Shown here piece by piece: positions 5,400 to 38,796 of a stretch of DNA of 45,349 nt (position 1 is the stretch's first letter; every line of letters begins with the position of its first letter). The stretch is taken from positions 1-45,349 of the forward strand of contig JBDLKA010000021.1 in NCBI GenBank assembly GCA_039714075.1, in the 5' to 3' direction. The translations under genes were made by a program, and so were the position numbers. Origin of the DNA: Candidatus Krumholzibacteriota bacterium (GTDB lineage: Bacteria > Krumholzibacteriota > Krumholzibacteriia > LZORAL124-64-63). The notes under the pieces are model-generated. The model was not told the origin of the DNA. It made no database searches and saw nothing but the letters and a program-made list of their open reading frames with translations.

Positions 5400-5441
5400 C
5401 ATTGGCCGGACGTTGAACCTTTGAAACCCGAATCGAGCAGC

Positions 5442-12390: not shown

Positions 12391-13983
12391 TCATTGGCCG
12401 GTATTGAGCCGCCAGATCGCCCCCCATCTCGCCCGGCTGAAAAGCGGTCCCCTGGTCACGAGCTGGACATCGTCGTAAAGGCGCCGCAATGCCGGATCGA
12501 CAAGCCGGTTCCTGTCCGCGGCGATGGTGGCTTTGAAACCCTCGGGGAAATCCCGGTAAAAATGGCCGATGCGCCAGCCACTCTTGTATCTGGGGTGCGG
12601 CGTGACCGGAAGACGCGCCAGGAAGGGACTAGCCAGGCCGTAGGGACCCAGCACGTGGATCCAGGGACCGGCCTCGTAGCCGAAGAAACCGATGTTCTGT
12701 ATCAGGCGGTATCCCTGTTGGTTCCTGGCTATGGCCCGGGCACGGGCGCGCCGGCCCTCGAGGGCCCAAACATGCTCTTCGAAGTCGCCGTCGAGGCGGT
12801 GCCAGGCCCCGGTTGTCCGGAAGTAGTAGCCACGTTCGTCGTTGATCCCCGACCACCCCTCCGGTTGACTATAGTCGAAAGAGCAGGTGACCGGATTGCC
12901 GGGCACCAGCAGGGCCAGGCCTAGGCCCGCGGCCAAGGCCCAACGCAGGCGCGGGTCGGGCATCGGCCGCCGCGCCATGAGGCAGACGGTGAAGATGAAC
13001 GGCAGGGTCAGGAAGCGCCCCCCCATGAAGCACCCCCCGATCCACACGACATACAGGAGATGAAGCACCTGTCCGATCAGGAAAGCCAGGTCGGCTCTCG
13101 GCCTGCGCAGCATGACCGCCGCCCCTGCCACGAGCGTCAACCCCAGCACCGGATCGGCCTTCACGGAGTAGTCCAGGTAACGCAATCCCTGGCCCGCCAG
13201 CAGGGTGGCCGACAGGCCGGTGTCGAGCTTGGCATAAGCCGTGTTGGCCACCGGAAAGCCGAACCAGACGACCGAGAAAATCTCCCAGAGGATCAACGGC
13301 AGCATCCCCGTCAACAGGGGGCGCCAGGCCAGCCGGCCCAGCCCCGCCGCCCGCCACATCAGCGGCGGGCCGAACAGAAGCACGCTGTCAGCGCGCGTCA
13401 TGGCTGCCAGGGCGGTGATCAACGTAAGCAGAAGGATATTGTTTTCCGCGCCGGACGACACCCCGGATCCCTTGCGGTTCCGCCGTGACCATACCGCCAC
13501 GAACAGTACCGCAAGCAGGTACAGGAGCGGGTTCTCCAGTCCCGACGTGGCGTAGTCGACCCACCACTTGGACATCGCCAACGCAAGCGCGGCAAGCGCA
13601 GCGGTGGCGGGCGAGGAAGCCAGGCGCCAGAACACCATCGCCAGGGCCGCAAGCGTTGCGACGAGCGAGGCAAGCACCAGGCTCCAGTATCCATCCTGCA
13701 CCACGAACCGCACGCCGGTCACGGCCAGCAACCACAGCGGATGGGTGAATACCTGCACCCGCTCCCCGGCGTTCCAGGTCAGCCCCCTGCCCTCGACCAG
13801 GTTCTCTACGGTGCGCAGGGAGATAAAGGCGTCGTCCCCGACCCAGGCGCACTTGAAGACGACCAAGGCCAACAGGACCAGCAGGCCCGTGCGCAGGAGG
13901 TGGTCGAGGCGACGACCCTGCCGTAAAGAAGCAGCATCCTCCGTTTGGTCAAGTTGTCCTGTGAAGATGATCAAGGCACCCAT
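12391..13983 (-). CDS. Polytopic GT-C glycosyltransferase, arabinofuranosyltransferase AftB-like
   Basis: First-loop motif DDAFISLRTVENLVEGRGLTWNAGERVQVFTHPLW resembles the AftB DD...N.GERVE..T signature. Also TSGLENPL, PNTAYAK-like 'VANTAYAK', GGCFMGGRF, RIGHF and about 10 or more TM segments. Confidence 0.7.
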   Translation of the reverse strand: MGALIIFTGQLDQTEDAASLRQGRRLDHLLRTGLLVLLALVVFKCAWVGDDAFISLRTVENLVEGRGLTWNAGERVQVFTHPLWLLAVTGVRFVVQDGYWSLVLASLVATLAALAMVFWRLASSPATAALAALALAMSKWWVDYATSGLENPLLYLLAVLFVAVWSRRNRKGSGVSSGAENNILLLTLITALAAMTRADSVLLFGPPLMWRAAGLGRLAWRPLLTGMLPLILWEIFSVVWFGFPVANTAYAKLDTGLSATLLAGQGLRYLDYSVKADPVLGLTLVAGAAVMLRRPRADLAFLIGQVLHLLYVVWIGGCFMGGRFLTLPFIFTVCLMARRPMPDPRLRWALAAGLGLALLVPGNPVTCSFDYSQPEGWSGINDERGYYFRTTGAWHRLDGDFEEHVWALEGRRARARAIARNQQGYRLIQNIGFFGYEAGPWIHVLGPYGLASPFLARLPVTPHPRYKSGWRIGHFYRDFPEGFKATIAADRNRLVDPALRRLYDDVQLVTRGPLFSRARWGAIWRLNTGQ

Positions 13984-14135
13984 CCGACATGACTGGAAAC
14001 CGAATTACCTCAGGGAATACTGTGGAACTTGCGGGATGTTGTCAACGCTGCCACCGACCAATCCCACAGCCGCACCCCGCGCTCGAATCCCGACTCCTGG
14101 TGTGGATGTATTATAACTGCTGGTTACTGAAGTGT

Positions 14136-14154
14136 TTGAATGATTTTCATTATA
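14136..14154. promoter_or_regulatory. Fur-box-like site in AT-rich divergent promoter region
   Basis: TTGAATGATTTTCATTATA matches 13/19 of GATAATGATAATCATTATC. The core AATGATTTTCAT recurs at 32670-32681. Confidence 0.35.
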
Positions 14155-14258
14155 TTGCGCCGGCCCAACGATTGTGATTGATTATCCCTATAAAATCGCT
14201 AGGATATACAGGATCCAATTTCAAGTGGGGGGAGGAGGTGCCATCCCTGGAGTTGATC

Positions 14259-14444
14259 ATGGATTTTCCTGCCTGCAAGAAGTGCAACGACGGCCTGCTG
14301 CTGCCCCTGTCCGACTACGGACGGGACGGCGCACCCATCCGCTACAAGGCCTGGGTTTGCCACAACCCGGACTGCGGTTTCAGCATCCGCATCGACAACG
14401 GTGAAATCAGCCTGGGCAAGAGCCTGCGCGAATCGGTCAAGTAG
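14259..14444 (+). CDS. Small (61 aa) Cys-rich zinc-ribbon-like protein
   Basis: GGAG RBS 6 nt before ATG 14259. Sequence MDFPACKKCNDG...WVCHNPDCGF has CxxC and CxxxxC, with GC3-rich codon usage like neighbouring genes. Confidence 0.75.
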   Translation: MDFPACKKCNDGLLLPLSDYGRDGAPIRYKAWVCHNPDCGFSIRIDNGEISLGKSLRESVK

Positions 14445-15270
14445 CCGGCTTCCCCACGGTCCAGAGGAAGCGTCCCACCACCAGCATCCCCAGTATCGAA
14501 CCCGCGGCCAGGCCCCAGTCCTGCATGGTTATGGGCTGCGGTTCGGCCAGGCTGCCCTCGGCGTTCAGCATCGCCCACAGGGAAACGGCGTTGTGCACCG
14601 CGTGCGCCACCCAGCAGGCCGTCACCGACCGCGTGGTTTCGTAGATGAAGGCCAGCATGAAGCCCACCCCGACCAGGCCGAACAGGAACCAGGGTTCCCC
14701 GTGAACGATGGCGAAAACGAGGGCTGAGATCAGCGCTGCGGGCATCGCGCCCCACATGACTGAAGCCAGCCGGTGCAACAAGCCCCGGAAAATGATTTCT
14801 TCGGCGAGCGGCGCCACGAACACGACGGTGAAAACGGCAAACAGGATGCCGGGGCCCGTGGTGGGCATGTTTTCCCGGAAAAAACTTTCCCACTGCGGAT
14901 TGGCCGGGTGCAGGCGCAGGGACAGTTCGGCCAGCAGCGAAGTGGGGACCAGGGAACACAACGCCATCAGCGCGGCGGCGGCCAGGATGAGCGGGTGGAC
15001 GGTGGTCAGGCTGAAGTCCCGGCGGAGGGTGAAATTCCAACGGCGGGCCAGCAGGTACACCGGCAGCAGGACCCCGGCGACCGCCCCGGCCAGCACGGGC
15101 ACGAACAGGTCCGTCCGCACCAGGTAGAACAGGACCTGGAAGAAGAAATTGCCGGCCATCAGGATGGTGGCCAGACCCATGATCCGGCCCCGGCTCCAGG
15201 TTTCCCACAAACCCTGCGGCTGCTGCGGTTCCTGGGGAATGTTGCCGTTATACTGATTCAAGTCGTTCAT
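14437..15270 (-). CDS. CPBP (CAAX/Abi) family intramembrane metalloprotease
   Basis: APLAEEIIFRG (EExxxR), FAIVHG and AHAVHN motifs with multiple TM helices. Start is ATG 15270 or TTG 15279. Confidence 0.9.
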   Translation of the reverse strand: MNDLNQYNGNIPQEPQQPQGLWETWSRGRIMGLATILMAGNFFFQVLFYLVRTDLFVPVLAGAVAGVLLPVYLLARRWNFTLRRDFSLTTVHPLILAAAALMALCSLVPTSLLAELSLRLHPANPQWESFFRENMPTTGPGILFAVFTVVFVAPLAEEIIFRGLLHRLASVMWGAMPAALISALVFAIVHGEPWFLFGLVGVGFMLAFIYETTRSVTACWVAHAVHNAVSLWAMLNAEGSLAEPQPITMQDWGLAAGSILGMLVVGRFLWTVGKPAT

Positions 15271-17817: not shown

Positions 17818-18828
17818 ATGAAGATCCTCGGTATCGAAACCTCCTGCGACGACACGAGCGTGGCCCTGTACGACAGCGACCGCGGCGTGGCGGAAAACCT
17901 GGTCTCCTCGCAGGTGGACCTGCACGACCACTTCGGCGGCGTGGTGCCCGAACTGGCCAGCCGCGCCCATCTGGTCAACCTGTTGCCGCTGGTGGACTAT
18001 CTGCTGGAGCGGCAGAAACTGACCCTGAAGGATCTGGACGGGGTGGCGGTCACGGCGGGGCCCGGGTTGATCGGCGCCCTGCTGGTGGGCCTGTCCACCG
18101 GCAAGGCCCTGAGCATGGCGGCCGATTTGCCCCTGGTCGGGATCCATCACATCGAAGGACATATCCTGGCCAACGCGCTGACCGCCGACATGGTTTTGCC
18201 CGCGGTGGTCCTGGTGGTGTCCGGCGGGCATACCGAGGTGGTCTACATGCCCGAGGTCGGCCGTTACGAACTGCTGGGCGGCACCCTTGACGACGCCGCG
18301 GGCGAGGCTTTCGACAAGACCGCCAAGCTTCTGGGCCTGCCCTATCCCGGCGGGCCCCACATCGACCGCATGGCGCGCCAGGGCACCGCCGGCAGCTTCA
18401 AGTTTCCGCGGCCCCTGAAAAACGATCCCCGCACGGTTTTCAGTTTCAGCGGTCTCAAGACAGCCGTCCGCGTGGTGGTCGATGACCTTCCCCGTCCCTT
18501 GTCCGAGCAGACCGTGGCCGACGTCAGCTACGAGGTCCAGGAAGCGATCGTGGACTCCCTTTGCCACCGGCTGTTTCAGGCCGCCCGGCGCAAACACGTT
18601 CCCGCCGTCTATCTGGCCGGCGGCGTCTCGGCCAACGGGCGCCTGCGCGAGCGGGTGGCGGCCGAAGCGGCCGAACGGAACCTCCATTTCCTGCCGCCGG
18701 AGCCCGTCTACTGCACCGATAACGCCGCCATGATCGCCTATGCCGGCTGGTGCCATCTGGAGGCCGGACGCCGCGACGGTCTGGACCTGGACAGCTTTCC
18801 CCGCAAGCCACTGACCTCCTGGCGCTGA
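17818..18828 (+). CDS. tsaD: tRNA N6-adenosine threonylcarbamoyltransferase
   Basis: ILGIETSCDDT, GGVVPELASRAH, GPGLIGAL, HHIEGH, VSGGHT, DDAAGEAFDK, FSFSGLKT and CTDNAAMIA. Confidence 0.97.
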   Translation: MKILGIETSCDDTSVALYDSDRGVAENLVSSQVDLHDHFGGVVPELASRAHLVNLLPLVDYLLERQKLTLKDLDGVAVTAGPGLIGALLVGLSTGKALSMAADLPLVGIHHIEGHILANALTADMVLPAVVLVVSGGHTEVVYMPEVGRYELLGGTLDDAAGEAFDKTAKLLGLPYPGGPHIDRMARQGTAGSFKFPRPLKNDPRTVFSFSGLKTAVRVVVDDLPRPLSEQTVADVSYEVQEAIVDSLCHRLFQAARRKHVPAVYLAGGVSANGRLRERVAAEAAERNLHFLPPEPVYCTDNAAMIAYAGWCHLEAGRRDGLDLDSFPRKPLTSWR

Positions 18829-18863: not shown

Positions 18864-18890
18864 TACGGTTTCCCCTCTTCCTGCCGATAC
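18864..18890 (+). promoter_or_regulatory. Putative sigma-28 (FliA/SigD)-type promoter of the c-di-GMP cassette
   Basis: TACGGTTT-N11-GCCGATAC versus consensus TAAAGTTT-N11-GCCGATAA, 55 nt upstream of ATG 18946. Confidence 0.4.
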
Positions 18891-18945
18891 AAGGAACAGA
18901 ATATTGGTGGGACGGTGTGCCCGTATGGCGACAAAGAGGGTGGAT

Positions 18946-19956
18946 ATGACCGCGAAAGCGCGCATTCTGGTGGCGGACGACGAGCCTCATATCAGGCGGA
19001 TCCTGCAATTCCTGCTCGAGGAAGAGGGTTTCGAAGTCCATATGGCCGAAGACGGGGAAGAGGCCTGGAAGGCCGTGGCCAGTTTTCAGCCCGATCTGGT
19101 TCTGTTGGACGTCATGATGCCGCGCATGGACGGCTTTGCCGTCCTGGAGATCATTCGCGCCGGCTTCGAAACGGCCCGGCTACCGGTGATCCTGCTGACG
19201 GCCAAGGGCGAGGAACAGGACAAGGTCAAGGGCCTGGCCGGGGGAGCGAACGACTTCATCGTCAAGCCGTTCAACCACGACGAACTTCTGCTGCGGGTCA
19301 GCAACCTGCTGGAGGCCACGCGGCGGGAACGCGAGGCCAACCCCCTGACGGGACTGCCCGGCAACCGGGCGATCGACCGGGAAATCAAGAACCGCATCAC
19401 CCACGACCAGGATTTCGGTTTCATGTACATCGACATGGACCGCTTCAAGAGCTTCAACGACAAGTACGGCTACTCCCGCGGGGACCGCGCCATTTCCTTC
19501 CTGGCCGGCGTCCTGGCCGGGATCACCCAGAAATACGGCACAGGCCGGGAATTCGTGGGCCATGTCGGCGGGGACGATTTCGTGGTCGTGGCCGGTTCGG
19601 AGGAAGCCGAACGTCTGGCGCACCGCATCATCCGGGAGTTCGACGAAGGCAAGGCCGATCTCCATGATGAAGAAGACTTCAATAACGGTTACCTGGAGAT
19701 CGAAAGCCGCAGCGGCCAGGTGGAACGCTTCCCCCTGATCACCCTGACCCTGGCCCTGGTCCCTGATTGCCGCGGCCGTTTCGCGCATCCGGCCGAATTG
19801 AGCGACACCCTGGTCGAATTGAAGAGATACGGCAAGACCAAGCCCCACAGCGTGGTGGTCCTGGAACGGCGGTCGGCCGAAGACAAGCCGGAAATGATCG
19901 CCGTCGTGGCGGATCAGGAAATGCCCGACGATTCCCCCGGCGAACCCGCCTCCTGA
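18946..19956 (+). CDS. Response regulator with diguanylate cyclase domain (REC-GGDEF, GGDDF variant)
   Basis: REC motifs ADDE, LDVMMP, LTAK and KPF. Cyclase motifs NPLTGLPGN, DMDRFKSFNDKYGY..GD and GHVGGDDF (19567-19581). Confidence 0.9.
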   Translation: MTAKARILVADDEPHIRRILQFLLEEEGFEVHMAEDGEEAWKAVASFQPDLVLLDVMMPRMDGFAVLEIIRAGFETARLPVILLTAKGEEQDKVKGLAGGANDFIVKPFNHDELLLRVSNLLEATRREREANPLTGLPGNRAIDREIKNRITHDQDFGFMYIDMDRFKSFNDKYGYSRGDRAISFLAGVLAGITQKYGTGREFVGHVGGDDFVVVAGSEEAERLAHRIIREFDEGKADLHDEEDFNNGYLEIESRSGQVERFPLITLTLALVPDCRGRFAHPAELSDTLVELKRYGKTKPHSVVVLERRSAEDKPEMIAVVADQEMPDDSPGEPAS

Positions 19957-19960
19957 CCGG

Positions 19961-22381
19961 ATGGTAGTCATGAACGGTTATGCCGACAACGCAACGGCGA
20001 TGTCACCGAGCGCGGATCCGGTCGACCAGGTCATGTCCGCCATCGGATCGGCGGAGGGCCTGCCCGAACTGGGAGATCTGGTCCGGACCTACCTGTCCGC
20101 TTGGACCGCCCTACCCGGGGTGTTGGCTGCCGCCGCTGCCGCGGATCCCCACGGGGCTGTTCCCCTGGACACTTCCACCTGCCGTCACTGCGAATCCTGG
20201 CTGGTCGCCACCCGCCGTCATGCGGGCGAGGATCAACCTTTCGACTGGGTCGATATGGGAGCCGGTTGGACCGGGCTTGCTTCGGCCTGGAGCGGAGGCC
20301 GGAACAACCCTTCCCGAATCATACAGGGCGCCGGCCCGCTGCCCGGCGGGGAACCCTGGTCCGAACCGGGTCACGGTTTCGAACCGGTGGTGTGCTCCGG
20401 TTGGATGATGGCTCCTTTCGAAGTCGGCGGACAGGTGAAATTCGTGTTGGCGGTGGGGTTGGCGGATGATCCGGACGCCGGCAGGGAAGTTCACGGGCAT
20501 TTCGACCGCCTGGTGAAGGCCCTGAAGCCCGTGGTCACCGTCTGGTCCGAGGCCATGGCCCTGGACGCCAGGTTGCGCCGGGCCGATGACAAGAACAAGG
20601 CCCTGACCCGCCTGAACCGGCTGCAGGGGCGGTTCGTGGCCATGGCGAGCCATGAATTCAAGGCGCCCCTGACCTCGATCACGGCCTACACCGATGTTCT
20701 CGACGAACATCTGCAAAGTTCGAATTTCAGTCATGCCGGGGAATTCCTGGGCGTCATCCGCAAAGAAACCGGCCGCCTGCTGCGTATGGTGAACCGGATC
20801 CTCGATTTCACGAAGATGGAACACGGCAGCCTCATGCTGACCCTGCAGCCCGTGAACCTGGAACCCCTGGTCCGGGACACGGTCCGGTCATTGGACCACA
20901 AGATCAGCGCCAAGGATCTGATCGTGGAGGTGGAGGCCCCGCTCGGCCTGCCGCGGGCCATGGTGGATCCAGAACTGATCCGGCAGGTGCTGGTCAATCT
21001 CCTGCACAACGCCGTGAAGTTCACTCCGCCCGGCGGCAGGATCACCGTTTGTCTGCGGGAACAGGAATCGGCCGTGGCCGTCAGTGTGCGCGACAACGGA
21101 CCCGGCATCCCGCAGGAGGACATCCGGCGGATTTTCCGCGAATTCTACCGGGCCGAAAGCGGGACCTCTTCCGAGGACGGAACCGGTCTCGGCCTGACCA
21201 TCGCCCGGCACATCGTGAACCTGCACGGGGGGCACATAGAAGTGGAACGGCGCCCCGGCGGGGGGTCGGATTTCCGGTTCCTGGTGCCCAAGGAAATGGA
21301 CTCCCTGGCTACGCTGGGGGATGTGCTGCGTCTGACCATCGATCCGGAGGAAAGTTACCGGCTGGTGGAGAACCTGTTGTTCCTTCTGGCGGAAATGACG
21401 GGATCGCGCACGGTGATCATGCTTCTGCGGGACGGTGGGGGAGGGCTGGTTCCCGTCGGAGCCCTGGGTCTGGATCTGGATGCCGCCAAGCCCCTGCCCC
21501 TGATCGAGAACCGGGGCTGGACCCGCTTCCTGGAACAAGGCGAAACCGTGACCGATCCGGGTTCCCTGGTCGGTGATCTCGGGTGGTGCCCGAGCAGTGC
21601 GGCCAAGGACGGCTGCCGCATGTACGCGCCGATCGGTGCGGGGGAGTCGGCCCTGGGGTGTGTCATCCTGGGACGGCGCCGCGGACTGGAAAAATACGAC
21701 CAGGCGGACCTGGCCCAGTTGTCGGTCCTGACCGAAATCGTGCGCACGGCCCTGAGCCATCTGGAGACCGGCCTGACGCCGACCACGTCGGCGCTCCGGC
21801 TCCTGTTGCGCATCAGACGCAACGGCGTTCCGACGGCCACGGCGCCGGCCCTGGCCCTGGCCCTGGCCGAAAAGCTGGGCGCCGCGGTGGGCCTGACCAA
21901 ACCGGAGATCAAGCAACTGCAGCTCGCGGCCGTGCTGCACGACGCGGGCATGGCCCAGGTCGAGGAGGAGATCGTCCTCGGCTCGTCGGAACTGAGCATG
22001 GACGAGCGGGATGAAGTCAACCGCCACGTGGATCAGGTGGTGGATATCCTGGGGCCGCTGCTGCTGGATCCGTCAATCGCCCGGATCATTCGTCATCATC
22101 ATGAACGGTTCGACGGAACGGGATATCCGGACGGCCTGGAGGGAGACCGGATTCCCCTGGAATCGCGCCTGCTGGCGGTCATCGACACCTGGTTCTCGCT
22201 GACCAGTGCCCGCCCCTTCCGCGGCGGGTTGTCTCCCGCAGAGGCCCTGGCCGAAATCCGCGCCCACGCCGGCACGCAGCTGGACGGGCGGATCGTCGAG
22301 GAATTCACGCAGGTATTGAACAACCAGGGCGTTTTGACCGACGTTCCTGCGCCCGCCGGACCCACGGGTCCGGGTGTTTGA
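19961..22381 (+). CDS. Hybrid histidine kinase with GAF-like and C-terminal degenerate HD-GYP domain (soluble)
   Basis: SHEFKAPLTSI, NLLHNAVKFT, DNGPGI and GTGLGL, followed by LHDAG...HHHERFDGTGYPDGLEG..IP..SR...D...RPFR. No obvious TM segment. Confidence 0.85.
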   Translation: MVVMNGYADNATAMSPSADPVDQVMSAIGSAEGLPELGDLVRTYLSAWTALPGVLAAAAAADPHGAVPLDTSTCRHCESWLVATRRHAGEDQPFDWVDMGAGWTGLASAWSGGRNNPSRIIQGAGPLPGGEPWSEPGHGFEPVVCSGWMMAPFEVGGQVKFVLAVGLADDPDAGREVHGHFDRLVKALKPVVTVWSEAMALDARLRRADDKNKALTRLNRLQGRFVAMASHEFKAPLTSITAYTDVLDEHLQSSNFSHAGEFLGVIRKETGRLLRMVNRILDFTKMEHGSLMLTLQPVNLEPLVRDTVRSLDHKISAKDLIVEVEAPLGLPRAMVDPELIRQVLVNLLHNAVKFTPPGGRITVCLREQESAVAVSVRDNGPGIPQEDIRRIFREFYRAESGTSSEDGTGLGLTIARHIVNLHGGHIEVERRPGGGSDFRFLVPKEMDSLATLGDVLRLTIDPEESYRLVENLLFLLAEMTGSRTVIMLLRDGGGGLVPVGALGLDLDAAKPLPLIENRGWTRFLEQGETVTDPGSLVGDLGWCPSSAAKDGCRMYAPIGAGESALGCVILGRRRGLEKYDQADLAQLSVLTEIVRTALSHLETGLTPTTSALRLLLRIRRNGVPTATAPALALALAEKLGAAVGLTKPEIKQLQLAAVLHDAGMAQVEEEIVLGSSELSMDERDEVNRHVDQVVDILGPLLLDPSIARIIRHHHERFDGTGYPDGLEGDRIPLESRLLAVIDTWFSLTSARPFRGGLSPAEALAEIRAHAGTQLDGRIVEEFTQVLNNQGVLTDVPAPAGPTGPGV

Positions 22382-22390
22382 GGAGTGGCA

Positions 22391-22780
22391 ATGAACGATT
22401 ATCCCAGGGTTCTGGTCGTGGACGACGAAAAGCCCATCTCCACCCTTCTGGCCCAGACGTTCGAGCAGGAGGGGTACGAGGTCGTCAACGCCTTCGACGG
22501 CATCGACTGCATGAACAAGATGGCCACCTTCCGCCCGGACGTGGTGATCATGGACATCATGATGCCGAAGCTGGACGGGGTCGATACCACCCGTCTCATC
22601 CGGCGGAACCGGAGCTACGAGGACACCATCGTCGTCGCTTTGTCCGCCAAGTCGGACGAGGAGACGCGCCAGCGGATGAAGGACGCGGGCGCCAACCTGT
22701 TCATGAGAAAGCCGTTCGTCATAGCCAAACTGCTGGCCAGGGTTTCCCGGATGCTGGAAATCCAGTCCGGATCGCGTTGA
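22391..22780 (+). CDS. Single-domain response regulator (CheY-like)
   Basis: AGGAG RBS at 22381; VVDDE, MDIMMPKLDG, LSAK and KPF. Confidence 0.93.
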   Translation: MNDYPRVLVVDDEKPISTLLAQTFEQEGYEVVNAFDGIDCMNKMATFRPDVVIMDIMMPKLDGVDTTRLIRRNRSYEDTIVVALSAKSDEETRQRMKDAGANLFMRKPFVIAKLLARVSRMLEIQSGSR

Positions 22781-22790
22781 GGTAAGCGGA

Positions 22791-25400
22791 ATGTTGAAGG
22801 CCCCAGCCATCGGAATGCTGATCGCTCCTGTGACGGGAATCGTTGCCGCGGCCGCGGTGCCGATGCCGGTCGCGGTCGTGCTGGTCATCCTGACGGCGGT
22901 GGGGGTGTGGGGGGCCATGATGGGGTTGCGGATCATGGCGGCCCGGAGGCGTCTGGAAGTCAAAACGGAAGTCCTGCGCGGCCGCACCAGGACACTGGAA
23001 AACATCCTGGCGGTTTCCGCCCGCATCAACGCCACCAGGAACCTGGCGGAACTGGCGGACAAGTTGGCCACGGCGGTGGAGGAAGTAACAGGATTCCGGC
23101 GCGTGATCCTGTATCTGTGGTCCGACGCCACGAAGGCCTTCGAGGCCCGGTCTTTCGCGGGCATCACCCCGGACGAACAGGCCCATCTGGCGGGGGCTCA
23201 GATCCTGCCCTCGGACTATGATGAATTGAGCCGGGAGGAATGCCGGTACTCCAACTGCTATTTCCTGGACCCCCCGGGGACCCGCCGGCAGACCGTGCCC
23301 TGCGTGGATCTGCTGCCGGATTCCCGCAAATGGAAAACGGGCCAGCGCCTGATCGCGCCGTTGGCCTCGTCCGGCGGCGACGTCGTCGGATACCTCGATC
23401 TGGCGGAGCCCGCGTCGGGCCTGGTGCCCGATCCGGCGGCGATCCGCCAGCTGGAGTTCCTGACCCGCCAGGCCACCACCGCGGTCGAGTCCGCGGAAGT
23501 GTACGATCACCTGGCGCGGAAGAACGCCGATCTTTCCGTCGCCTCGGAAAAGCTCAACAGCCTGGCCGAAATGAAAAAGAACTTCGTGGCCAATGTCAGC
23601 CACGAACTGCGCACGCCGCTGACCTCCATTTCCGCCTACACCGAACTGCTGCAGAAGAACCTGAACACCCTGGCGCCCGAATCACTGGACGAGTTCCTGG
23701 AGGTGATCCACGACGAGAGCGTCAAACTGACCGGGATCATCAACGACATCCTGGACCTGAGCCAGATGGAGAACAACCGGCCGTCCATGAAGCAGGTGGA
23801 TACGGACCTGGTCGCCCTGGTGAAGCACCTGGAGGATTCCTGGACCAGCCGCGCCCGCAAGATGAACATCAAGTTCAAACTCGACGCCGGAGCCGAGGTC
23901 ATCCAGCTGGCCCTGGACCCGCTGCTGATCCAGCAGATGCTGACCCATCTGGTGGGCAACGCGTTCAAGTTCACTCCGGCCGGAGGCCAGGTGCGGGTCG
24001 GCTTGCAGGAGACGGGCACCGCGGTTTGCCTGACGGTCCAGGATACGGGGATCGGCATCCCCGCGGACAAGCTGGGCGACATCTTCGAGAGTTTCTACCA
24101 GGTCGATTCCTCCGCCACGCGGAGGCACAATGGGCAGGGGGTGGGCCTGGCCATCTGCAAGGATATCGTCGTTCACCACGACGGCCGGATCTGGGCGGAA
24201 AACGTGGAGCCCCAGGGCGCCCGGATCACCGTTCTGCTGCCGCGGCGGCCGGCCGTCCTGCAGCCGGCGGATCCCGTTTCCCTGACCAGCCTGCCCTTCG
24301 AAGCCGGTGAATTCGTGCAGCGGTTGATGCACTGGGTGAGCGAGAGCCTGGGCATCCAGGTGGCCGCCCTGATGGTGCCGGACCCCACGGGAAACCATCT
24401 GACGATCCGTGCGGCCATCGGGCTGCCGGAATCGGTGGTCCAGAGCGCCCGGGTGCGCCGGGGTGCGGGTTTCGCGGGCCGGGTCTGGGAGTCGGGGGAG
24501 ACCCTCCTGGTGAACGACCTGACACGGGACACCCGGTTCCGCCGCGAACTGAACGAACCCCGCTACTCGACCCCTTCATTGCTGTGCGTTCCGCTGAAGG
24601 ACGGCGACGAGGTCGTGGCCGTCATCTCGGTGAACAACAAGGTCGACCGCACCGCCCTGGACACCGACGACATGGTGTTCCTGGAATCGCTGGCGCCCCG
24701 CCTGACGCGCTTGCTGACCCGCTACGAATCCTGGCAGGACGGAGCGCGCGATTTCGAGGCCATCCGCGATACCCTGCGGTCCACCACCGCGGTGGGACAC
24801 ATGCGCCACGAAAGCCTGCTGGAAGTATGTCAGGAAATCTGTCTGGCTTCCGCCCGCCGGGTCATGCTGCCGGGTGACGAGCTGGAGCATCTGGCCTTTT
24901 CGCTGCAGTTCTACGACGTGGGCCTGGACAGCGTTCCGGCCCAGGTGTTGAGCAAGCCGGGCCGGTTGAATGAAGAGGAACGGCGCCACGTGGAGAAACA
25001 CGTGGACGCGGGTCTGGGCATCCTGGAGTCGCTCCAGCTGAACGCCAAGGTCCGGCAGCTCATTCTGCATCACCACGAGAATTTCGACGGGTCTGGATAT
25101 CCGGTGGGCCTGGCGGGAGAGGCGATCCCTCTCGGTTCGCGCCTGATCCGGCTGGCCGATACCCTCTCGTCGCTTTTGAACCATCGCCCGTGGCGTCCCT
25201 CCATGGGATTGGACGAGGCCATGGACGTGATCCGGGGAGGCATCGGCCGGGAGTACTGCCCGCGCATGTCCGAGGTCTTCCTGGACGAGACCGAGGCGCG
25301 CCGGCAGCGCATAGTCGATCTGCAGGACCGGGAAGGTGCCGGAACCGACCTGAAACGCCTGGCCCTTGACCACGGCGTGCCCGTGCCGGTTGAAGCTTGA
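22791..25400 (+). CDS. Membrane-anchored GAF-HisKA-HATPase-GAF-HD-GYP(degenerate) hybrid kinase
   Basis: N-terminal hydrophobic segment, GAF, SHELRTPLTSI, GNAFKFT, DTGIGI, GVGLAI, a second GAF (GFAGRV...D.RF...SLLCVPL), then FYDVG...HHHENFDGSGYP.GL.GE.IP..SR...D...RPWR. Confidence 0.87.
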   Translation: MLKAPAIGMLIAPVTGIVAAAAVPMPVAVVLVILTAVGVWGAMMGLRIMAARRRLEVKTEVLRGRTRTLENILAVSARINATRNLAELADKLATAVEEVTGFRRVILYLWSDATKAFEARSFAGITPDEQAHLAGAQILPSDYDELSREECRYSNCYFLDPPGTRRQTVPCVDLLPDSRKWKTGQRLIAPLASSGGDVVGYLDLAEPASGLVPDPAAIRQLEFLTRQATTAVESAEVYDHLARKNADLSVASEKLNSLAEMKKNFVANVSHELRTPLTSISAYTELLQKNLNTLAPESLDEFLEVIHDESVKLTGIINDILDLSQMENNRPSMKQVDTDLVALVKHLEDSWTSRARKMNIKFKLDAGAEVIQLALDPLLIQQMLTHLVGNAFKFTPAGGQVRVGLQETGTAVCLTVQDTGIGIPADKLGDIFESFYQVDSSATRRHNGQGVGLAICKDIVVHHDGRIWAENVEPQGARITVLLPRRPAVLQPADPVSLTSLPFEAGEFVQRLMHWVSESLGIQVAALMVPDPTGNHLTIRAAIGLPESVVQSARVRRGAGFAGRVWESGETLLVNDLTRDTRFRRELNEPRYSTPSLLCVPLKDGDEVVAVISVNNKVDRTALDTDDMVFLESLAPRLTRLLTRYESWQDGARDFEAIRDTLRSTTAVGHMRHESLLEVCQEICLASARRVMLPGDELEHLAFSLQFYDVGLDSVPAQVLSKPGRLNEEERRHVEKHVDAGLGILESLQLNAKVRQLILHHHENFDGSGYPVGLAGEAIPLGSRLIRLADTLSSLLNHRPWRPSMGLDEAMDVIRGGIGREYCPRMSEVFLDETEARRQRIVDLQDREGAGTDLKRLALDHGVPVPVEA

Positions 25401-25425
25401 CAAACACACAACGAGAGGATCGGCC

Positions 25426-25800
25426 TTGTACAAGGTTCTGATAGCCGACGACGAACACAACATCCGCAATATCCTCGATTTCAGTCTCCACGCCGAAGGG
25501 TTTCTGGTCGTCTCCGCGTTGAACGGGGAAGACGCCTTCAAACTGGCGGTGGAAACCTCTCCGGACCTGATCATCCTGGACGTGATGATGCCGGGGCAGG
25601 GCGGGGTCGAAACCTGCCGGGCCCTGAAAGGGGACAAGCGCACCACCGCGATCCCCGTCGTCCTGCTGACGGCGCTGGCCGAACAGAAGGACCGGACCGC
25701 CGGCCGCGAGGCCGGGGCCGATGCCTACATCACCAAACCCTTCAGCCCCCAGAAAGTCATCGACACCGTGCTGGACCTGCTCGGCGTGCCCAGCGATTAG
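25426..25800 (+). CDS. Single-domain response regulator (CheY-like)
   Basis: GAGAGG RBS and TTG start; IADDE, LDVMMP, LTA and KPFSP. Confidence 0.92.
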   Translation: MYKVLIADDEHNIRNILDFSLHAEGFLVVSALNGEDAFKLAVETSPDLIILDVMMPGQGGVETCRALKGDKRTTAIPVVLLTALAEQKDRTAGREAGADAYITKPFSPQKVIDTVLDLLGVPSD

Positions 25801-25960
25801 CAGGCTGTTGAAAAACTCCTCCCGGCGTCATGCACGCCTTGCCAAACCGAGCTCGGCGTTGCGAATTCTTGCCGTAGCTATGGCTACGGCGGCGAATCCG
25901 CGCCTTGATCTCGGCTCGGCAAGGCGCACCTGCCACCAGAATGAGTTTTTCAACAGCCTG
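25801..25960. mobile_element. MITE-like non-autonomous element forming a long fold-back
   Basis: Perfect inverted repeat AGCAGGCTGTTGAAAAACTC (25799-25818) / GAGTTTTTCAACAGCCTGCT (25943-25962), nested internal stems, no coding capacity, flanked by TTAG and CTTG. Confidence 0.75.
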
Positions 25961-25994: not shown

Positions 25995-26023
25995 TGGACG
26001 AGGTGACCCGGGCGCGGTAGAAT
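25995..26023 (+). promoter_or_regulatory. Putative sigma-70 promoter for priA
   Basis: TGGACG-N17-TAGAAT about 50 nt upstream of the priA start. Confidence 0.45.
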
Positions 26024-26074: not shown

Positions 26075-28111
26075 TTGGGGATTGAGGCTTCCTTGTGCCA
26101 CCTGGTTGAAATCGTCCTGCCCGTGCCCCTGGCGCAGGTGTTTTCCTATCGTCTCGGGCCGCAGCCGGAGGCGGAGGATGCTCCCGCCATCCAGGAGGGG
26201 GACCTGGTCGTGGTGCCCTTCGGACGGCGCCGGGAAGTCATCGGCATGGTGGTGGGGGTCGCCGGTCTGGCGGACGACATCCGGGAAATCGACGGGGTCC
26301 GGCTGCGCGATGTCATCCGCCGCCTGCCTCCGGAATACCGTGTCACCGGGGACCGCCTGGGGTTGGCGCGGTGGTTGTCGTCCTACTACGCCCTGCCCCT
26401 GGGTGAGGTGGTGCCCCTGTTCCATCCGCCCGCACCGGGGACCCGCGCGCGCGGCGGAGGTGCGCAGACGCTCCAGCCGGAGTACCCCGCCGTGGATCCC
26501 GAAAACATCTCCCTGACCCGCGCCCAGAAGCGGGCGGTGGCGGCGGCGGCCAAGATCCTGAAGGCCCGTTCGTTCGGGGCCCTGCTGTTGCACGGAGTGA
26601 CCGGCAGCGGCAAGACCGAGGTCTATCTCAACATCATTTCCAAAGCTTTGGCCGCCGGCCGGGGGGCCATCTACCTCCTGCCGGAAATCGCCCTGACCCC
26701 GCAAACCCTGGCCAGGATTTCGGCCCGGTTCGGCGACCGGGTGGCCGCCATCCACAGTGGGCTGTCGGCGGGGCAGCGCTGCCGGGTTCATGAGATGGCT
26801 GCCCGGGGGGAGATCGAGGTGGTCGTGGGGCCCCGCTCGGCCCTGTTCGCCCCGCTCAGGGATCTGGGCGTCATCATCGTTGATGAGGAACATGAAACCT
26901 CCTTCAAGCAGGATGAAAAACCCCGCTACCACGCCCGGCATGCCGCCCTGGTCCGGGGCCGGGAAAACAAGGCCGTGGTGATGCTGGGATCCGCCACTCC
27001 CGATCTGGAATCCATGATCAACGCCCGGGAAGGACGATCCCAGTTGCTGGAACTTCCGGACCGCATGGGCGGAAGCCTGCCTCCGGTCGAAGTGGTGGAC
27101 ATGCGGGGCGGCGGCAACCTGGAAGGGTTCACGCCGGCGCTGACCGAAGCCATGGCCGCAACCCTGGCGGAGGACCGCCAGATCATTCTCTATTACAATC
27201 GCCGGGGGTTCGCCCGGGTCCTGCAGTGTACCGATTGCGGGGAAGTGGTCATGTGCCCCAACTGCGATATCGGGGTGACCTATCACCTGCGGCCCCGACG
27301 GCTTTTGTGCCATTATTGCGATTTCACCCGCCAGGTTCCCGAAGCCTGCCCCGACTGCGGCGGTCAGGATTTTTTGCCGTCCGGGGGCGGAACCGAAAAA
27401 GTGGAGCTGAATCTGCAGGCCCATTTCCCGGAGGCCAGGATCCTGCGCCTGGACCACGACACCACCCGCCGCCGCGGCAGCCACCGCCGCATCCTGACGG
27501 CCTTTGCCCGGGGCGAGGCGGATATCCTGGTGGGCACCCAGATGGTGGCCAAGGGGCACCATTTTCCCCGGGTGGGCCTGGTGGGTGTCCTGGCGGCCGA
27601 CGACGGCCTGGGCCTGCCGGACTACCGGGCCGCCGAACGATCCTTCCAGTTGCTGACCCAGGTGGCCGGCCGGTCCGGACGGACAGATGCCGGGCGGGTC
27701 ATTTTCCAGGCCTGGCGACCCGAGGATCCGGTCATCCTGGCCGCGGCCTCCCATGACTACGCGACGTTCCTCGAAAACGAAATTCCCCTGCGCAAGGCTC
27801 TGGGTTATCCCCCCTTCAAACGTCTGCTCCGGCTGGGGATCAGTGGACGACGCCTGGCCCACACCGAAGAAGGGGCCCGCCAACTCGCCGCGGCCGTCCG
27901 CGCCAGCCTGGCCGGAGCGGGCCGGGAAGTGCTGGGTCCCGCGCCCGCGGTTTTTCCCCGCCTGAAGGACCGGTACCGCTTCCAGATCCTGGTCAAGGGC
28001 CCCCTCGGTAAAAAGGAAAAGGACTGGCTGGCGGATTGCCTGCGCAGTTTCAAGGATGGTTTCCGGGGAGTGGACGTGGTCCATGACGTGGATCCGGTTT
28101 CGATGTATTGA
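26075..28111 (+). CDS. priA: Primosomal protein N' (replication restart helicase)
   Basis: N-terminal 3'-DNA-binding domain (FSY...VVPFGRR), GVTGSGKTEVY, LPEIALTPQ, DEEH, PRYHAR, GSATP, NRRGF, four CxxC pairs, GTQMVAKG, QVAGRSGR and YPPF. Confidence 0.97.
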   Translation: MGIEASLCHLVEIVLPVPLAQVFSYRLGPQPEAEDAPAIQEGDLVVVPFGRRREVIGMVVGVAGLADDIREIDGVRLRDVIRRLPPEYRVTGDRLGLARWLSSYYALPLGEVVPLFHPPAPGTRARGGGAQTLQPEYPAVDPENISLTRAQKRAVAAAAKILKARSFGALLLHGVTGSGKTEVYLNIISKALAAGRGAIYLLPEIALTPQTLARISARFGDRVAAIHSGLSAGQRCRVHEMAARGEIEVVVGPRSALFAPLRDLGVIIVDEEHETSFKQDEKPRYHARHAALVRGRENKAVVMLGSATPDLESMINAREGRSQLLELPDRMGGSLPPVEVVDMRGGGNLEGFTPALTEAMAATLAEDRQIILYYNRRGFARVLQCTDCGEVVMCPNCDIGVTYHLRPRRLLCHYCDFTRQVPEACPDCGGQDFLPSGGGTEKVELNLQAHFPEARILRLDHDTTRRRGSHRRILTAFARGEADILVGTQMVAKGHHFPRVGLVGVLAADDGLGLPDYRAAERSFQLLTQVAGRSGRTDAGRVIFQAWRPEDPVILAAASHDYATFLENEIPLRKALGYPPFKRLLRLGISGRRLAHTEEGARQLAAAVRASLAGAGREVLGPAPAVFPRLKDRYRFQILVKGPLGKKEKDWLADCLRSFKDGFRGVDVVHDVDPVSMY

Positions 28112-28128
28112 TTGATTAATAAATCAGA

Positions 28129-28170
28129 TAAGAACCAAAATTGGAATGCCGATAATCAATGTGGTATATT
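28129..28170 (+). promoter_or_regulatory. Overlapping sigma-28-like and extended -10 promoter elements upstream of the protease
   Basis: TAAG-N15-GCCGATAA (28129-28155), and TTGGAA-N18-TATATT with TGn extension (28141-28170), in an AT-rich intergenic stretch. Confidence 0.45.
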
Positions 28171-28266
28171 CCTGTTGATAGTTGCTCTTCACATCGGAGG
28201 AGAGCCCCTAATCGTCCGTCCAGAAATGGATTCCCGAGTCTGGCCATGAAGTCCGGTTATGAAAGG

Positions 28267-31200
28267 ATGCTGAAGTTGCGATCCATCAATGACACCATAG
28301 GCAAACCGCACCGTCGTTTCCTGTTTTTCTGCGTGGTTCTGGCCGTGGCCGCATCCGTGGCCGTACCCATGGTCGTACCCATGGACGCCCTGGGCCAGGA
28401 CGCTCCCAATATCGCGGATCTTCAGCGGCGGATCGATCGGAACGGATGGGGTTTTCAGGTCGATGACCATTTCACCGCCACCTTGACGGATGATGAGCGG
28501 GCCAATCTGCGCGGCTACAATCCGCCCCCCGGTTACCAGCAGGAACTGGAACAGCATCTGAAGATCTATCCCGTGGACAAGAAAAGCCTGCCGAGCTCGA
28601 TCGACTGGCGGGACAGCGACGGCATCACCCCCGTCAAGAACCAGGGTTCGTGCGGCTCCTGCTGGGCCTTCGCGGCGACGGCCGAGTTGGAAGCCTTCAT
28701 CAAGATCTATTACGGGATCGAGACCGACTTGTCCGAGCAGCAGTCCGTTTCCTGCAACCCCTACGGCGCCGGTTGTGACGGCGGGTGGGCCACGGCTTCA
28801 TACTACGTCTTTCAGAATTACGGCGCCGTCCTGGAAAACTGCGCCCCCTACCTGGGCCTGGACCCTCCGGCCGCGCCCTGCACCCAGGAAGATTTTCTCA
28901 CCTACGGGACCATCACCGGCTACGACCACATCAGCAACGATGTCGCCCAGATCAAGGCGGCCCTGCAGAATGGTCCGGTCTGCACGGCTGTTGACGCCGG
29001 TCCGGAATTCGAGGCCTATTCCGGCGGCTGTTTCGACGTGCCCGGGCAGGGGACGAACCATCTGGTCCTGATCGTGGGCTATGACGACAAGCTTTGCGGC
29101 GGCACCGGCGCATGGATCATCAAGAACAGTTGGGGGAGCGATTTCGGCGTGGGCGGCTACATCACCATCGCCTATGGCGCAGCCTCGACGGGAACGAGTG
29201 TCACTCAGTTGCAGTACGCCCAGCCGCCGGTTTCCGTCGTCCTGAACGAAAGCCTGTATTCGACGCCCCTTTATGGTGATCAGCCGGTGGATGTCCAGTG
29301 GACCACCACGGGCGATCCCGTCAGCACCGTCGATTTCTGGTTGGGGATCGACGGGCACTGCCACGACATCCTGATCGAGGAAAACGTCCCCAACACGGGC
29401 ACCTATTCCTGGATGGTACCCAACCTGGGCACCAATTTCGCGAGTCTGGTGATCATTCCCAGTACCGGCACCGAAACGGGGTACGACTTTACCGAATCCC
29501 CGCTGACCATCATCGGCCACAAGACCCGCTACGTTTCGGCTGCGGGCAGCAACACTGCGCCCTACGAATCGCCGGCGACCGCGGCCCACACCATAGGCGC
29601 CGCGGTGACCGCCTGCACCGGTACGGACACTGTCCTGGTGGTGGGTGGGGATTACGTCGGCAATGTGACCATCAGCACCACGGTGAAGATTCGCGGGTCC
29701 TGGGACCCGACCTTCAGTGTCCAGGATATCCAGAGTCATCCGACCCGGATGCAGGCCGGCGGTTCGTGCCTGAGGTTCTACGGGGGATCGGGAGATTACG
29801 GCAGTGTCGAGGACGTGGTGTTCCACGACTGTTTCGGCGGCAACTCGAGCCAGCCCGAGAACGGTCAGCACGGGGGAGCCATCTACAGCCTGGGCGCTTC
29901 CCCGACCATCCGCAACTGCGTGTTCGAAAACAACCGGGCCGCTTCCGGAACGGGAACGGGGTATGGCGGGGCCATCTGCTTTGTCGATGGGTCTCCCCTG
30001 GTGGAGAATTGCGAGTTCACCGGGAACATCGCCAGCGCCGGGGGCGCCGTGGGGGTGTTCGGGACCGCGGTCGCCACTTTCAACGATTGCACCTTCACCG
30101 CCAACGGGAACAGCGATCTTTTCGAGGGTAATCACGGCGCGGCCCTCTTCGTCGAGGACGGCACCCTGATCCTCAACGGCGGCAGTGTGACCGCCGGAAC
30201 CGACAGCTTCAGGGGCGGCGCCCTGGCCCTGATCCAGGGGCAGGCCGTCCTGGACGGGGTTCTGGTGGAAGGCAACGGGACCGTTGGCGGCGGCGGCGCC
30301 GTCTACGCCGAAGGCGGCATCCTGGAACTGACCAATACCCACCTGGCCAACAATACCAGCGGCAGCGGCAGCGGTGGCGGAATTGAAGCCACCGGCACCC
30401 ACCTGGTCCTGCGCAACACCAGGATCGGCGGGAATATCTCCGGCAATATCGGCGGCGGCATCTATGCCATGTCGGTCACCGGTCTGGTCGAGAATTGCCA
30501 GGCCGACGGCAACCAGGGGGCCAGCGTCGGCGGCATGTTCCTGATGGGGGCCGGGGAACTGATTGTCCGGAACAACATGGTCTTTGCCAATGACAGCGGC
30601 GGATTGTTGGCCACGGGCACCCTGGTGACCGAGGACTGGAACAACGTCTGGAACAATATCGGGGGCGACTACCTGTCCGGGACTCCGGGTGCCCATGACT
30701 TGAGCCGGGATCCCCTGTTCGTGGATGAAGCGGGCGGGGACTTCGGCCTGGGCTGCTATTCCCCCTGCATCGACGGGGGCGAACTCGATCCCATGTGCCT
30801 GGATCCGGACGGTTCGCGGGCGGATATCGGCCTGCTCGGCGGGCCCGGGGCGGATTTTGCGGGTCCCGCCGCGGTCAGCGGCCTGGCTCTCGCGGACCTG
30901 GTCGGCGGCACATTCAGGTTGACCTGGGATCTGGGCCCGGAGCCCGATCTGGACCGCTACGTCATCTACCGGGATTCCGTGGAAGTGTTCATCCCTTCCA
31001 TCGACAAGGCCCTCTCTTCGGTAACCGCTCCCACCGTCACTTTCGACGACACCCCGCCCGTGGGTGATTGGTATTATCTGGTGTCGGCGGTCGATACCGA
31101 CGGCTACGGCGGGGGATACTCTGAAAAGGTTTTCGCTTCCGGGGGTGTGTCGGCGGTTGATGACGCCCTGCCGAAAACCATGGCCATCGCCCGCATTGCC

Positions 31201-38603: not shown

Positions 38604-38796
38604 GTTGTCCCGTGCCGGGGATTTCCCTATTTTCAAATCAGGCTCATTGATTCCACATCAGGGAACGTCGGGGACGAGGTTCCGGGTCGCGGGCAAAGCC
38701 CAGCCGCGTCGCACCAGGTGAGTACAAGTTATCCGGCTTTGATACGGATCGGATCCGGAATGTTTGCCCGTTTCCCTGGAATGTGGAGATACCGTC

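Follow-up and report, generated by a model that had tools for sequence, protein, structure and literature searches.

The window analysed here, a 45,349-nucleotide stretch of contig JBDLKA010000021.1 from an uncultured marine Krumholzibacteriota genome that is 92% complete, carries between tsaD and priA a cassette of five closely packed, co-oriented genes on the + strand, as read from the open reading frames (ORFs) and their Pfam matches. In order, these encode a receiver (REC)-GGDEF response regulator, a first histidine kinase (HK1), a single-domain receiver (REC_A), a second histidine kinase (HK2) and a second single-domain receiver (REC_B). The intergenic gaps are 4, 3, 10 and 25 nt, in agreement with the original prediction for this locus, which was made from the letters alone and described five co-oriented genes between tsaD and priA with gaps of about 4-25 nt. 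Each kinase ends in a GAF domain and an HD-GYP-like tail that has lost residues required for hydrolysis of cyclic di-GMP (c-di-GMP) in a characterized enzyme and has kept residues that contact the nucleotide. We propose that these tails are hydrolysis-impaired nucleotide-sensing modules that set the output of the kinases, a reading drawn from sequence to which we give an even chance. The cassette itself is real, strongly conserved and unstudied, and its novelty is less than had been assumed.

Both tails belong to the HD-GYP family and are predicted to adopt its fold. The tail of HK1 (aa 605-790; 21773..22330, + strand), placed by sequence alignments and VIA-align, and that of HK2 (aa 680-819; 24828..25247, + strand), placed by sequence alignments, match HD_5 at 2.6e-33 and 3.8e-30, respectively, and VIA-align comparisons of the HK1 model give Z-scores of 18.9-21.4. 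Sequence matches to solved HD-GYP enzymes include V-cGAP3 (1.6e-23), PA4781 (1.4e-20) and PmGH of Persephonella marina (~1e-15 to 5e-20). Residue roles were moved from PmGH, for which the chain index in 4MCW is the residue number of the paper plus six; nucleotide-contact and metal-ligand roles were also taken from sections 5 and 6 of the bioRxiv survey by Galperin and Chou. The metal ligands given for active HD-GYP enzymes are E185 (optional), H189, H221, D222, H250, H276, H277 and D305 (PMC4159591). According to the mutant data of the same paper, H189A, H221A, K225A and D308A each abolish the activity of PmGH and E185A merely reduces it; R314A, K317A and GYP mutants do not abolish it, and the crystal complex with c-di-GMP has metal only beside the GYP tyrosine.

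Measured against this reference, the metal-ligand set of an active phosphodiesterase is incomplete in both tails, with no equivalents of E185 and H189 in either and none of H221 in HK2, and the supporting residues K225 and D308 are replaced in both. The tail of HK1 has M664 in place of K225, G674 in place of K235, so that the KPG motif is lost, and F745 in place of D308; it keeps H660, D661, H689, H713, H714, Y722, D742, R751 and R754. The tail of HK2 has Y708, L712 and S793 at H221, K225 and D308, and keeps D709, the KPG motif (722-724), H737, H761, H762, Y770, D790, R799 and R802. The motif HHExxDGxGYP is present in both (positions 713-723 in HK1 and 761-771 in HK2), and the guanine-recognition motif RxY[K/R] reads RPFR in HK1 and RPWR in HK2, with a family pattern of RP[FYW]R. 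In light of the mutant and complex data from PmGH, the residues lost are catalytic, while those kept are nucleotide contacts and part of the metal site, a pattern that suggests a c-di-GMP-sensing tail more readily than an enzyme. The tails had been called degenerate before, and the alignments bear this out; the site of the degeneracy has to be moved, as HK1 keeps both HD and GYP and its losses lie in K225M, E185/H189, D308F and KPG.

The same states recur among the orthologues, for which we counted residues in 76 type A (HK1-like) and 65 type B (HK2-like) sequences, some of them incomplete. In type A, H221 and D222 are conserved in 67 of 67 sequences, H276/H277 and D305 in 66 of 66 and H250 in 67 of 68, and K225 is replaced by Met in all 67. 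Type B sequences have Tyr at H221 in 57 of 60 (His in 2, Arg in 1), conserve D222, H250 and H276/H277 in 60 of 60 and D305 in 58 of 61, and carry Leu (44), Met (15) or Ile (1) at K225 among 60. D308 is Asp in 6 of 66 type A sequences (Phe in 42) and in none of 61 type B sequences. The position of K235 is Lys in 32 and Gly in 30 of 67 type A sequences, with Gly in the window, and Lys in 45 and Arg in 12 of 60 in type B. At Y285, the GYP tyrosine, 52 of 67 type A sequences have Tyr, the others having His (11), Phe (3) or Arg (1); in type B, Tyr stands there in 60 of 62. R314 is kept in 64/67 (type A) and 57/60 (type B), and K317 is Arg in 64/67 and 54/59, respectively. No conserved His or Glu occurs in the helix of E185/H189 in the orthologue alignments of either type; instead, type A sequences share a conserved G-[VI]-P-T-[AS]-T in this helix. 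The genome encodes four further HD_5 proteins. HDxGK is intact in three of them, and C29, the fourth, reads RDxGL. A His aligns at H189 in two of the three; C18, the remaining one, also has a His at this place, which the automated alignment gapped.

Structural comparison of the tails with solved HD-GYP proteins used an AlphaFold2 model of HK1 built from 80 sequences (pLDDT 85.2, pTM 0.70). Whole-model Foldseek matches were filled by kinase cores, and the tail matches were seen only with VIA-align. The best of these is c-di-GMP-bound DvhD of Desulfovibrio vulgaris (9RBZ/9RC0; 9rbz_D, Z 21.4, 201 residues aligned); PA4781 (4r8z) gives Z 18.9, and PmGH (4MCW/4MDZ; 4mcw_B) aligns with HK1 460-793 across both of its own domains at Z 19.1 over 310 of 363 residues. 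PmGH has the same GAF + HD-GYP module, and it shares GYP, HHE, H250, D222, D305 and R314 with the tails. As an enzyme, PmGH stands alone and has eight metal ligands as well as K225, D183 and D308. Here the module follows a full kinase, and E185, H189, K225 and D308 are missing from it, as is H221 in HK2. DvhD is described as a dCache-PAS-HD-GYP receptor that binds c-di-GMP without hydrolysing it, through R650, Y652 and R653 and without metal, binding being accompanied by movement of the stalk helices (PMC13090378). A counterpart of this R-x-Y-R site is kept in the kinase tails. Unlike DvhD, which has lost HD (SQ) and HH (MN), the tails keep D222, H250, HH and D305, with HD present as HD or YD; the output of DvhD is a periplasmic protease trap, and that predicted for the tails is a kinase.

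In ShkA and CckA of Caulobacter, SgmT of Myxococcus and RavS of Xanthomonas, kinase activity is set by c-di-GMP, as we propose here. The receptor element is reportedly the CA domain in CckA and RavS; it is a pseudo-receiver in ShkA and, in SgmT, a degenerate c-di-GMP-metabolising domain (GGDEF) at the C-terminus. In none of the four is it an HD-GYP domain, and these elements are not homologous to the tails; the receptor domain proposed here is not known from any other c-di-GMP-regulated kinase. Both halves of the proposal have experimental precedent, the dead HD-GYP domain as c-di-GMP receptor in DvhD and the c-di-GMP-regulated kinase in ShkA, which c-di-GMP is reported to stimulate (PMC7010744). 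Taken together, the best explanation of the residue pattern is that the GAF + HD-GYP module of the tails has become a pseudo-enzyme, a status that is predicted from sequence.

The two kinases have the same architecture, (transmembrane)-GAF-HisKA-HATPase-GAF-HD-GYP, in which the N-terminal domain of HK1 is only GAF-like. HK1 (type A, soluble, 806 aa; 19961..22381, + strand) matches HisKA at 5e-15, HATPase_c at 6e-32 and, weakly and below threshold, GAF_3 at 0.0028; HK2 (type B, membrane-anchored, 869 aa; 22791..25400, + strand) matches HisKA at 4e-21, HATPase_c at 4.3e-28 and GAF. The HisKA and HATPase_c matches exceed the Pfam cut-offs, and both proteins belong to the HisKA class. The kinase core of HK1, placed by Pfam and VIA-align, comprises HisKA aa 222-289 and HATPase aa 336-445 (20624..21295, + strand), and that of HK2, placed by Pfam, comprises HisKA aa 261-328 and HATPase aa 376-486 (23571..24248, + strand). 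The H-box histidines, His231 in HK1 and His271 in HK2, are invariant in the alignments, the N, G1, F and G2 boxes are present, and the CA domain of the HK1 model aligns to ThkA, HK853 and others at Z ~20-21.6 with VIA-align.

The additional GAF domains were found by local hhalign, profile against profile, on orthologue alignments built for this analysis. The central GAF of HK2 (aa 507-638; 24309..24704, + strand) is recognized by GAF (9.6e-20 to 1e-19) and GAF_2 (4.3e-20), and that of HK1 (aa 462-599; 21344..21757, + strand) by its 99.8% hhalign match to the HK2 GAF. The N-terminal region of HK2 has no Pfam hit; residues 55-250 are a GAF at 97.3% in hhalign against the central GAF of HK2 (E 1.7e-11), which places the domain at aa ~63-240 (22977..23510, + strand). 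In HK1, an N-terminal alpha/beta domain (aa ~20-170; 20018..20470, + strand), seen with hhalign and in the secondary structure of the AlphaFold2 model, joins DHp through a long helix. Residues 1-215 match the protein's own GAF at 90.8% and the HK2 GAF at just 10.5%, and the GAF-like call is weaker for this reason. The layout of HK1 as HisKA/HATPase, GAF and HD-GYP had been recognized correctly in the original prediction, which missed this N-terminal domain. Its division of the pair into one soluble and one membrane-anchored kinase holds: hydropathy gives no transmembrane segment in HK1 and one or two within residues 7-35 of HK2 (22809..22895, + strand; Kyte-Doolittle). In more distant orthologues, both kinases have ~four to seven predicted N-terminal transmembrane segments, so the genus of the window has trimmed its sensors.

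The cassette is conserved across Candidatus Krumholzibacteriota, with relatives mostly of the class Krumholzibacteriia. At least one full-length tail kinase occurs in 34 of 41 related genomes, and two adjacent ones in at least 24. Synteny had been suggested as a check on the cassette, and in all 20 neighbourhoods fetched from relatives the order is tsaD, REC-GGDDF (the cyclase gene, named for its motif), kinase A, (REC_A), kinase B, REC_B, priA. REC_A is missing in six of the 20 (L024-L029; families f3, f4 and f7). Five of these (L024-L028) have, after REC-GGDDF and before the first tail kinase, one more kinase, a plain one of ~276 aa that comprises just HisKA and HATPase. All five ORFs are intact in 45 of 73 loci from separate species genomes. 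A tblastn map of the other 28 shows three unrelated kinases and one Eiseniibacteriota form, the rest being cut at contig ends, frame-shifted (L045, L065 and L087) or with the kinase split or mis-assigned among ORFs. In the three frame-shifted loci, both the cassette and the neighbouring housekeeping genes lie in many pieces, which points to faulty assembly more than to decay of the genes.

A quick maximum-likelihood tree splits types A and B cleanly into two clades (SH-aLRT 100), each with the same order of families; being unrooted, the tree shows only that the A/B duplication predates the sampled families. The Candidatus Eiseniibacteriota locus (L103) has a three-gene form, with REC-GGDDF, one tail kinase and one receiver; its kinase falls on the type B side of the tree, and the tail carries RD..GM, HHE, GYP and RPYK. 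In seven of the 41 genomes (families f2 and f5) the best match is a kinase core only, and there is no tail kinase. The five of these that were searched (G025, G028, G033, G035 and G038) all have full-length REC-GGDDF matches; by match coordinates only, kinase-core and receiver matches lie beside REC-GGDDF in f2 and a receiver match follows it in f5. If this reading of the matches holds, the cyclase-receiver core may be older or more stable than the tails. Five family-f1 genomes (G014, G017, G019, G020 and G021) have just one full-length tail-kinase match among the matches listed.

The fusion of a kinase to an HD-GYP domain is found in >120 clusters at 90% identity; the search for loci related to type A used type A-specific DHp patterns, and its result is not a measure of spread outside the lineage. 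A kinase-to-tail profile was also run against 1.84 billion representatives at 50% identity, and 43 of the best 150 matches combine an HHE..GYP tail with an H-box that precedes it; most of the rest are either giant kinases with many GAF domains or GAF-HD-GYP proteins that lack a kinase part. In the 43 fused representatives, H250, H276, H277, Y285 and D305 are invariant, the K225 position is Met, Leu or Ile in every one, and the residue at H221 varies, with 22 Tyr, 18 His, 2 Arg and 1 Phe. A further protein outside the 43, P0368 (1018 aa), combines a kinase with PocR, two GAF domains and a canonical HD-GYP domain in which the N-terminal His, HDxGK, HHE, GYP and RPYRK are all present; a kinase can therefore be fused to HD-GYP without the altered site. 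Evidence of reach beyond Krumholzibacteriota and Eiseniibacteriota comes from a single row of the ESM Atlas, for a HisKA/GAF cluster (755 aa) that is commonest in Thermodesulfobacteriota and part of which aligns to HD_5; this serves as a lead only. Placement of HD-GYP behind HisKA-HATPase had been thought unusual, and these numbers show that its novelty was overstated. Our literature search found no paper on a HisKA-HATPase-HD-GYP fusion, although Table 3 or the supplements of Galperin and Chou may list the architecture, and nothing on Krumholzibacteria and c-di-GMP. The main text of the Galperin and Chou survey names REC, GAF, PAS, GGDEF and membrane sensors as partners of HD-GYP and, in the sections consulted, does not mention kinases.

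The first gene of the cassette (18946..19956, + strand) encodes a WspR-like response regulator of 336 aa, with matches to Response_reg (2.6e-32) and GGDEF (1.7e-16). Its ORF opens at 18904, and the ATG at 18946 was taken as the start because orthologues measure 328-336 aa. The cyclase motif is not GG[DE]EF; the sequence reads GGDDF, as it does in 21 of 21 orthologues, which departs from the canonical [G/A/S]G[D/E]E[F/Y]. The pattern DxDxFKxxND..GD (D163, D165, N171, D180) is kept and aligns to the GTP/metal residues D327, N335 and D344 of PleD, and the receiver residues D11, D12, D55, T85 and K107 are invariant in 65 sequences. Pfam GGDEF covers just profile positions 5-113 of 161. The fold is complete all the same, since the AlphaFold2 model (pLDDT 86.3) aligns to full-length WspR (3bre_A) at Z 22.7, with 284 residues aligned over 4-309. 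The build of receiver, helical stalk and GGDEF domain is therefore that of WspR (PA3702) and PleD; the differences are GGDDF for GG[DE]EF, an insertion of ~25 residues after the motif and the lack of an RxxD inhibitory site, which lies five residues before the motif in this type of cyclase, none being found in the stretch before GGDDF (aa ~199-207). The base-selectivity residue is Asp. A reading of this domain as a Hypr-type cGAMP synthase was rejected, as that position is not Ser.

A GGDDF domain is reported to be active in a GSU1937-GacA chimera (PMC8835794), and lack of the canonical motif therefore does not exclude activity; the invariance of GGDDF argues for an activity under selection, and we consider REC-GGDDF the likely source of the c-di-GMP signal. 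The genome has four GGDEF-type genes (a canonical GGEEF with RxxD, a GGDEF-EAL, the operon gene and a REC-GGDDF paralogue), together with one EAL, six HD_5 and three PilZ genes. As PilZ, EAL and canonical GGEEF genes are present, c-di-GMP signalling exists in this organism. The paralogue, on contig C74 at 13863-14975, has GGDDF and the GTP-binding pattern, so that the variant cyclase family is not confined to the operon.

The two single-domain receivers, REC_A (22385..22780, + strand; Response_reg 1e-27) and REC_B (25426..25800, + strand; 8.4e-26), complete the cassette. The phosphoacceptors Asp55 of REC-GGDDF, Asp57 of REC_A and Asp52 of REC_B are each accompanied by a DD pair, Thr/Ser and Lys, and with His231 and His271 they agree with the earlier description of the H-boxes and receiver Asp residues as intact. 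Receiver helix alpha-1 is the main kinase-contact helix, as in HK853-RR468. This helix reads I-R-x-I-L-x-F-x-L in REC-GGDDF and REC_B and P-I-A-x-L-L-x-Q-T-F in REC_A, which hints that REC-GGDDF and REC_B may share a kinase and that REC_A may have its own.

Gene order, domains, motif states with their conservation, and predicted folds were seen directly; from these we infer the identity of the ligand, the lack of hydrolysis, the phosphorylation partners and the direction of feedback. In the mechanism that we propose, HK1 would autophosphorylate on His231 and HK2 on His271, and the kinases would hand phosphate to the three receivers. Phosphorylated REC-GGDDF would then make c-di-GMP, and c-di-GMP, or alternatively pGpG or 3'3'-cGAMP, would bind the altered HD-GYP pocket without efficient turnover, shifting the balance between kinase and phosphatase through the GAF domain and helical linkers. 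The single-domain receivers would be outputs or phosphate sinks. The resulting closed loop, with kinases that phosphorylate the cyclase and c-di-GMP that feeds back on the kinases, would resemble the DivJ/PleC - DivK - PleD system of Caulobacter, where two kinases serve a single-domain receiver and a receiver-cyclase and c-di-GMP acts back on a kinase. The likeness is one of circuit logic only, with no orthology and no CtrA/ChpT branch, and here the feedback sensor would be fused to the kinases. In its fullest form, the cassette may be a self-contained, lineage-wide c-di-GMP feedback switch, in which two ancient paralogous kinases phosphorylate a GGDDF cyclase and decoy receivers and the cyclase product is read by a metal-retaining pseudo-HD-GYP on each kinase; this would constitute a new class of receptor for kinase control and, fixed beside priA/tsaD, a core regulatory circuit of Krumholzibacteriota; we put this forward tentatively and consider it rather unlikely as a whole.

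Several observations weigh against a nucleotide-sensing role for the tails. Much less of the metal site is lost in them than in DvhD, which argues for a metal-dependent function, possibly catalysis. Loss of E185/H189 is not proof of inactivity, because Xanthomonas RpfG is also described as lacking equivalents of both (PMC4159591), and the very similar Lysobacter RpfG is cited by Galperin and Chou for robust hydrolysis. HK1 in the genus of the window has no KPG lysine (G674; Gly in 30 of 67 type A sequences), which weakens the case for ligand binding by HK1. The cyclase has a non-canonical motif, and PA3258, also a GGDDF protein, is reported to be inactive (PMC8835794). Finally, f2 and f5 keep REC-GGDDF without a tail kinase, and the tail thus appears to be dispensable for the core circuit. 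The first two of these points lead to an alternative in which the tails, for all their reduced metal centre, work as phosphodiesterases, perhaps slow or pGpG-preferring, and hydrolysis of the product of REC-GGDDF is gated by the sensor and kinase domains. HK1-type tails, in contrast to DvhD, keep HD, H250, HHE and D305 throughout or almost so, and GYP mostly; section 8 of the survey reports activity for RpfG-type proteins in Lysobacter, which are likewise without the E185/H189 pair; PA4781, which has a bimetallic centre, is among the closest solved relatives; and P0368 shows that a kinase can be fused to a fully canonical HD-GYP domain. Set against this, the K225 position is never Lys in the 43 fused representatives or in any orthologue, type B tails have Tyr for H221 in 57 of 60, K225A, H189A, H221A and D308A each abolished the activity of PmGH (PMC4159591), and all but one of the four stand-alone HD_5 proteins of the genome have the lysine together with the N-terminal His, the latter gapped by the alignment in C18. 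We therefore regard hydrolysis by the tails as unlikely, although it is the main rival reading.

The conserved GYP motif would also fit tails that serve, in the manner of RpfG, as docking surfaces for the GGDDF domain and assemble a kinase-cyclase complex rather than sense a nucleotide. HD-GYP domains that regulate through protein-protein contact include RpfG and HnoD (Galperin and Chou, section 16), and the cyclase gene, which ends 4 nt before HK1, always accompanies the kinases; docking alone does not account for the conserved RxYR and KPG, however, and REC-GGDDF persists in genomes without tail kinases, so that we think this improbable. Still less probable, in our view, is a reading in which the reduced metal site informs the kinase of a non-nucleotide cue, for instance the availability of Fe2+, O2, NO or the redox state. 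The near-invariance or invariance of D222, H250, H276, H277 and D305 suggests a bound metal, and HD-GYP iron centres are described as oxidation-sensitive (section 6 of the same survey), but the guanine-contacting RxY[K/R] and the GYP tyrosine are retained and a cyclase gene always goes with the cassette. If the tails are nucleotide receptors, as we favour, they would represent a third route to c-di-GMP control of a histidine kinase, after binding to a pseudo-receiver or CA domain and the degenerate GGDEF, and they would show that a sensory HD-GYP domain, as known from DvhD, can also retain some of its metal ligands. If they are enzymes, they would show which residues HD-GYP catalysis needs at a minimum. 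This is a large, strictly conserved family from phyla without cultured members or signalling biochemistry, and either outcome would bear on hundreds of genes.

The cassette is flanked by tsaD (17818..18828, + strand; Pfam TsaD 4.1e-92) upstream and priA (26075..28111, + strand; PriA domains) downstream, both kept in the synteny maps. The spacing is 117 nt from tsaD to the first gene and 274 nt from REC_B to priA, and G+C is ~65% all along the window. REC_B starts with TTG, preceded by a GAGAGGA Shine-Dalgarno site. The sole promoter-like match of the region in a pattern scan lies at 25995-26023, just before priA, and the same scan found no convincing + strand terminator inside the operon or just 3' of it. 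A perfect hairpin with an 8-bp stem and a 4-nt loop, without a T tract, lies at 25872-25891, 72 nt 3' of the REC_B stop; it is absent from the pattern-scan list and is a possible end of the operon. A search for sequencing runs returned two DNA runs from one marine metagenome study and listed no RNA runs.

The other genes of the window are housekeeping genes or encode secreted proteins, and they point to no particular output. A 1549-aa HAMP-HisKA-HATPase kinase, the first ~1100 residues of which have no Pfam match, is encoded at 55-4704, and DUF4159, DUF4175 and TPR genes lie 3' of it (4662-11128). Five ORFs with high third-position G+C have no Pfam match at E 1e-5 (11125-12390; 12391-13983, - strand; 38764-39393; 40578-41090, - strand; and 41122-41619, - strand). 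Two large proteins of secreted type, a papain-family peptidase (28159-31452) and an FG-GAP/LamG protein (41698-45324, - strand), both have a FlgD_ig domain at the end, perhaps a common tag for sorting or anchoring.

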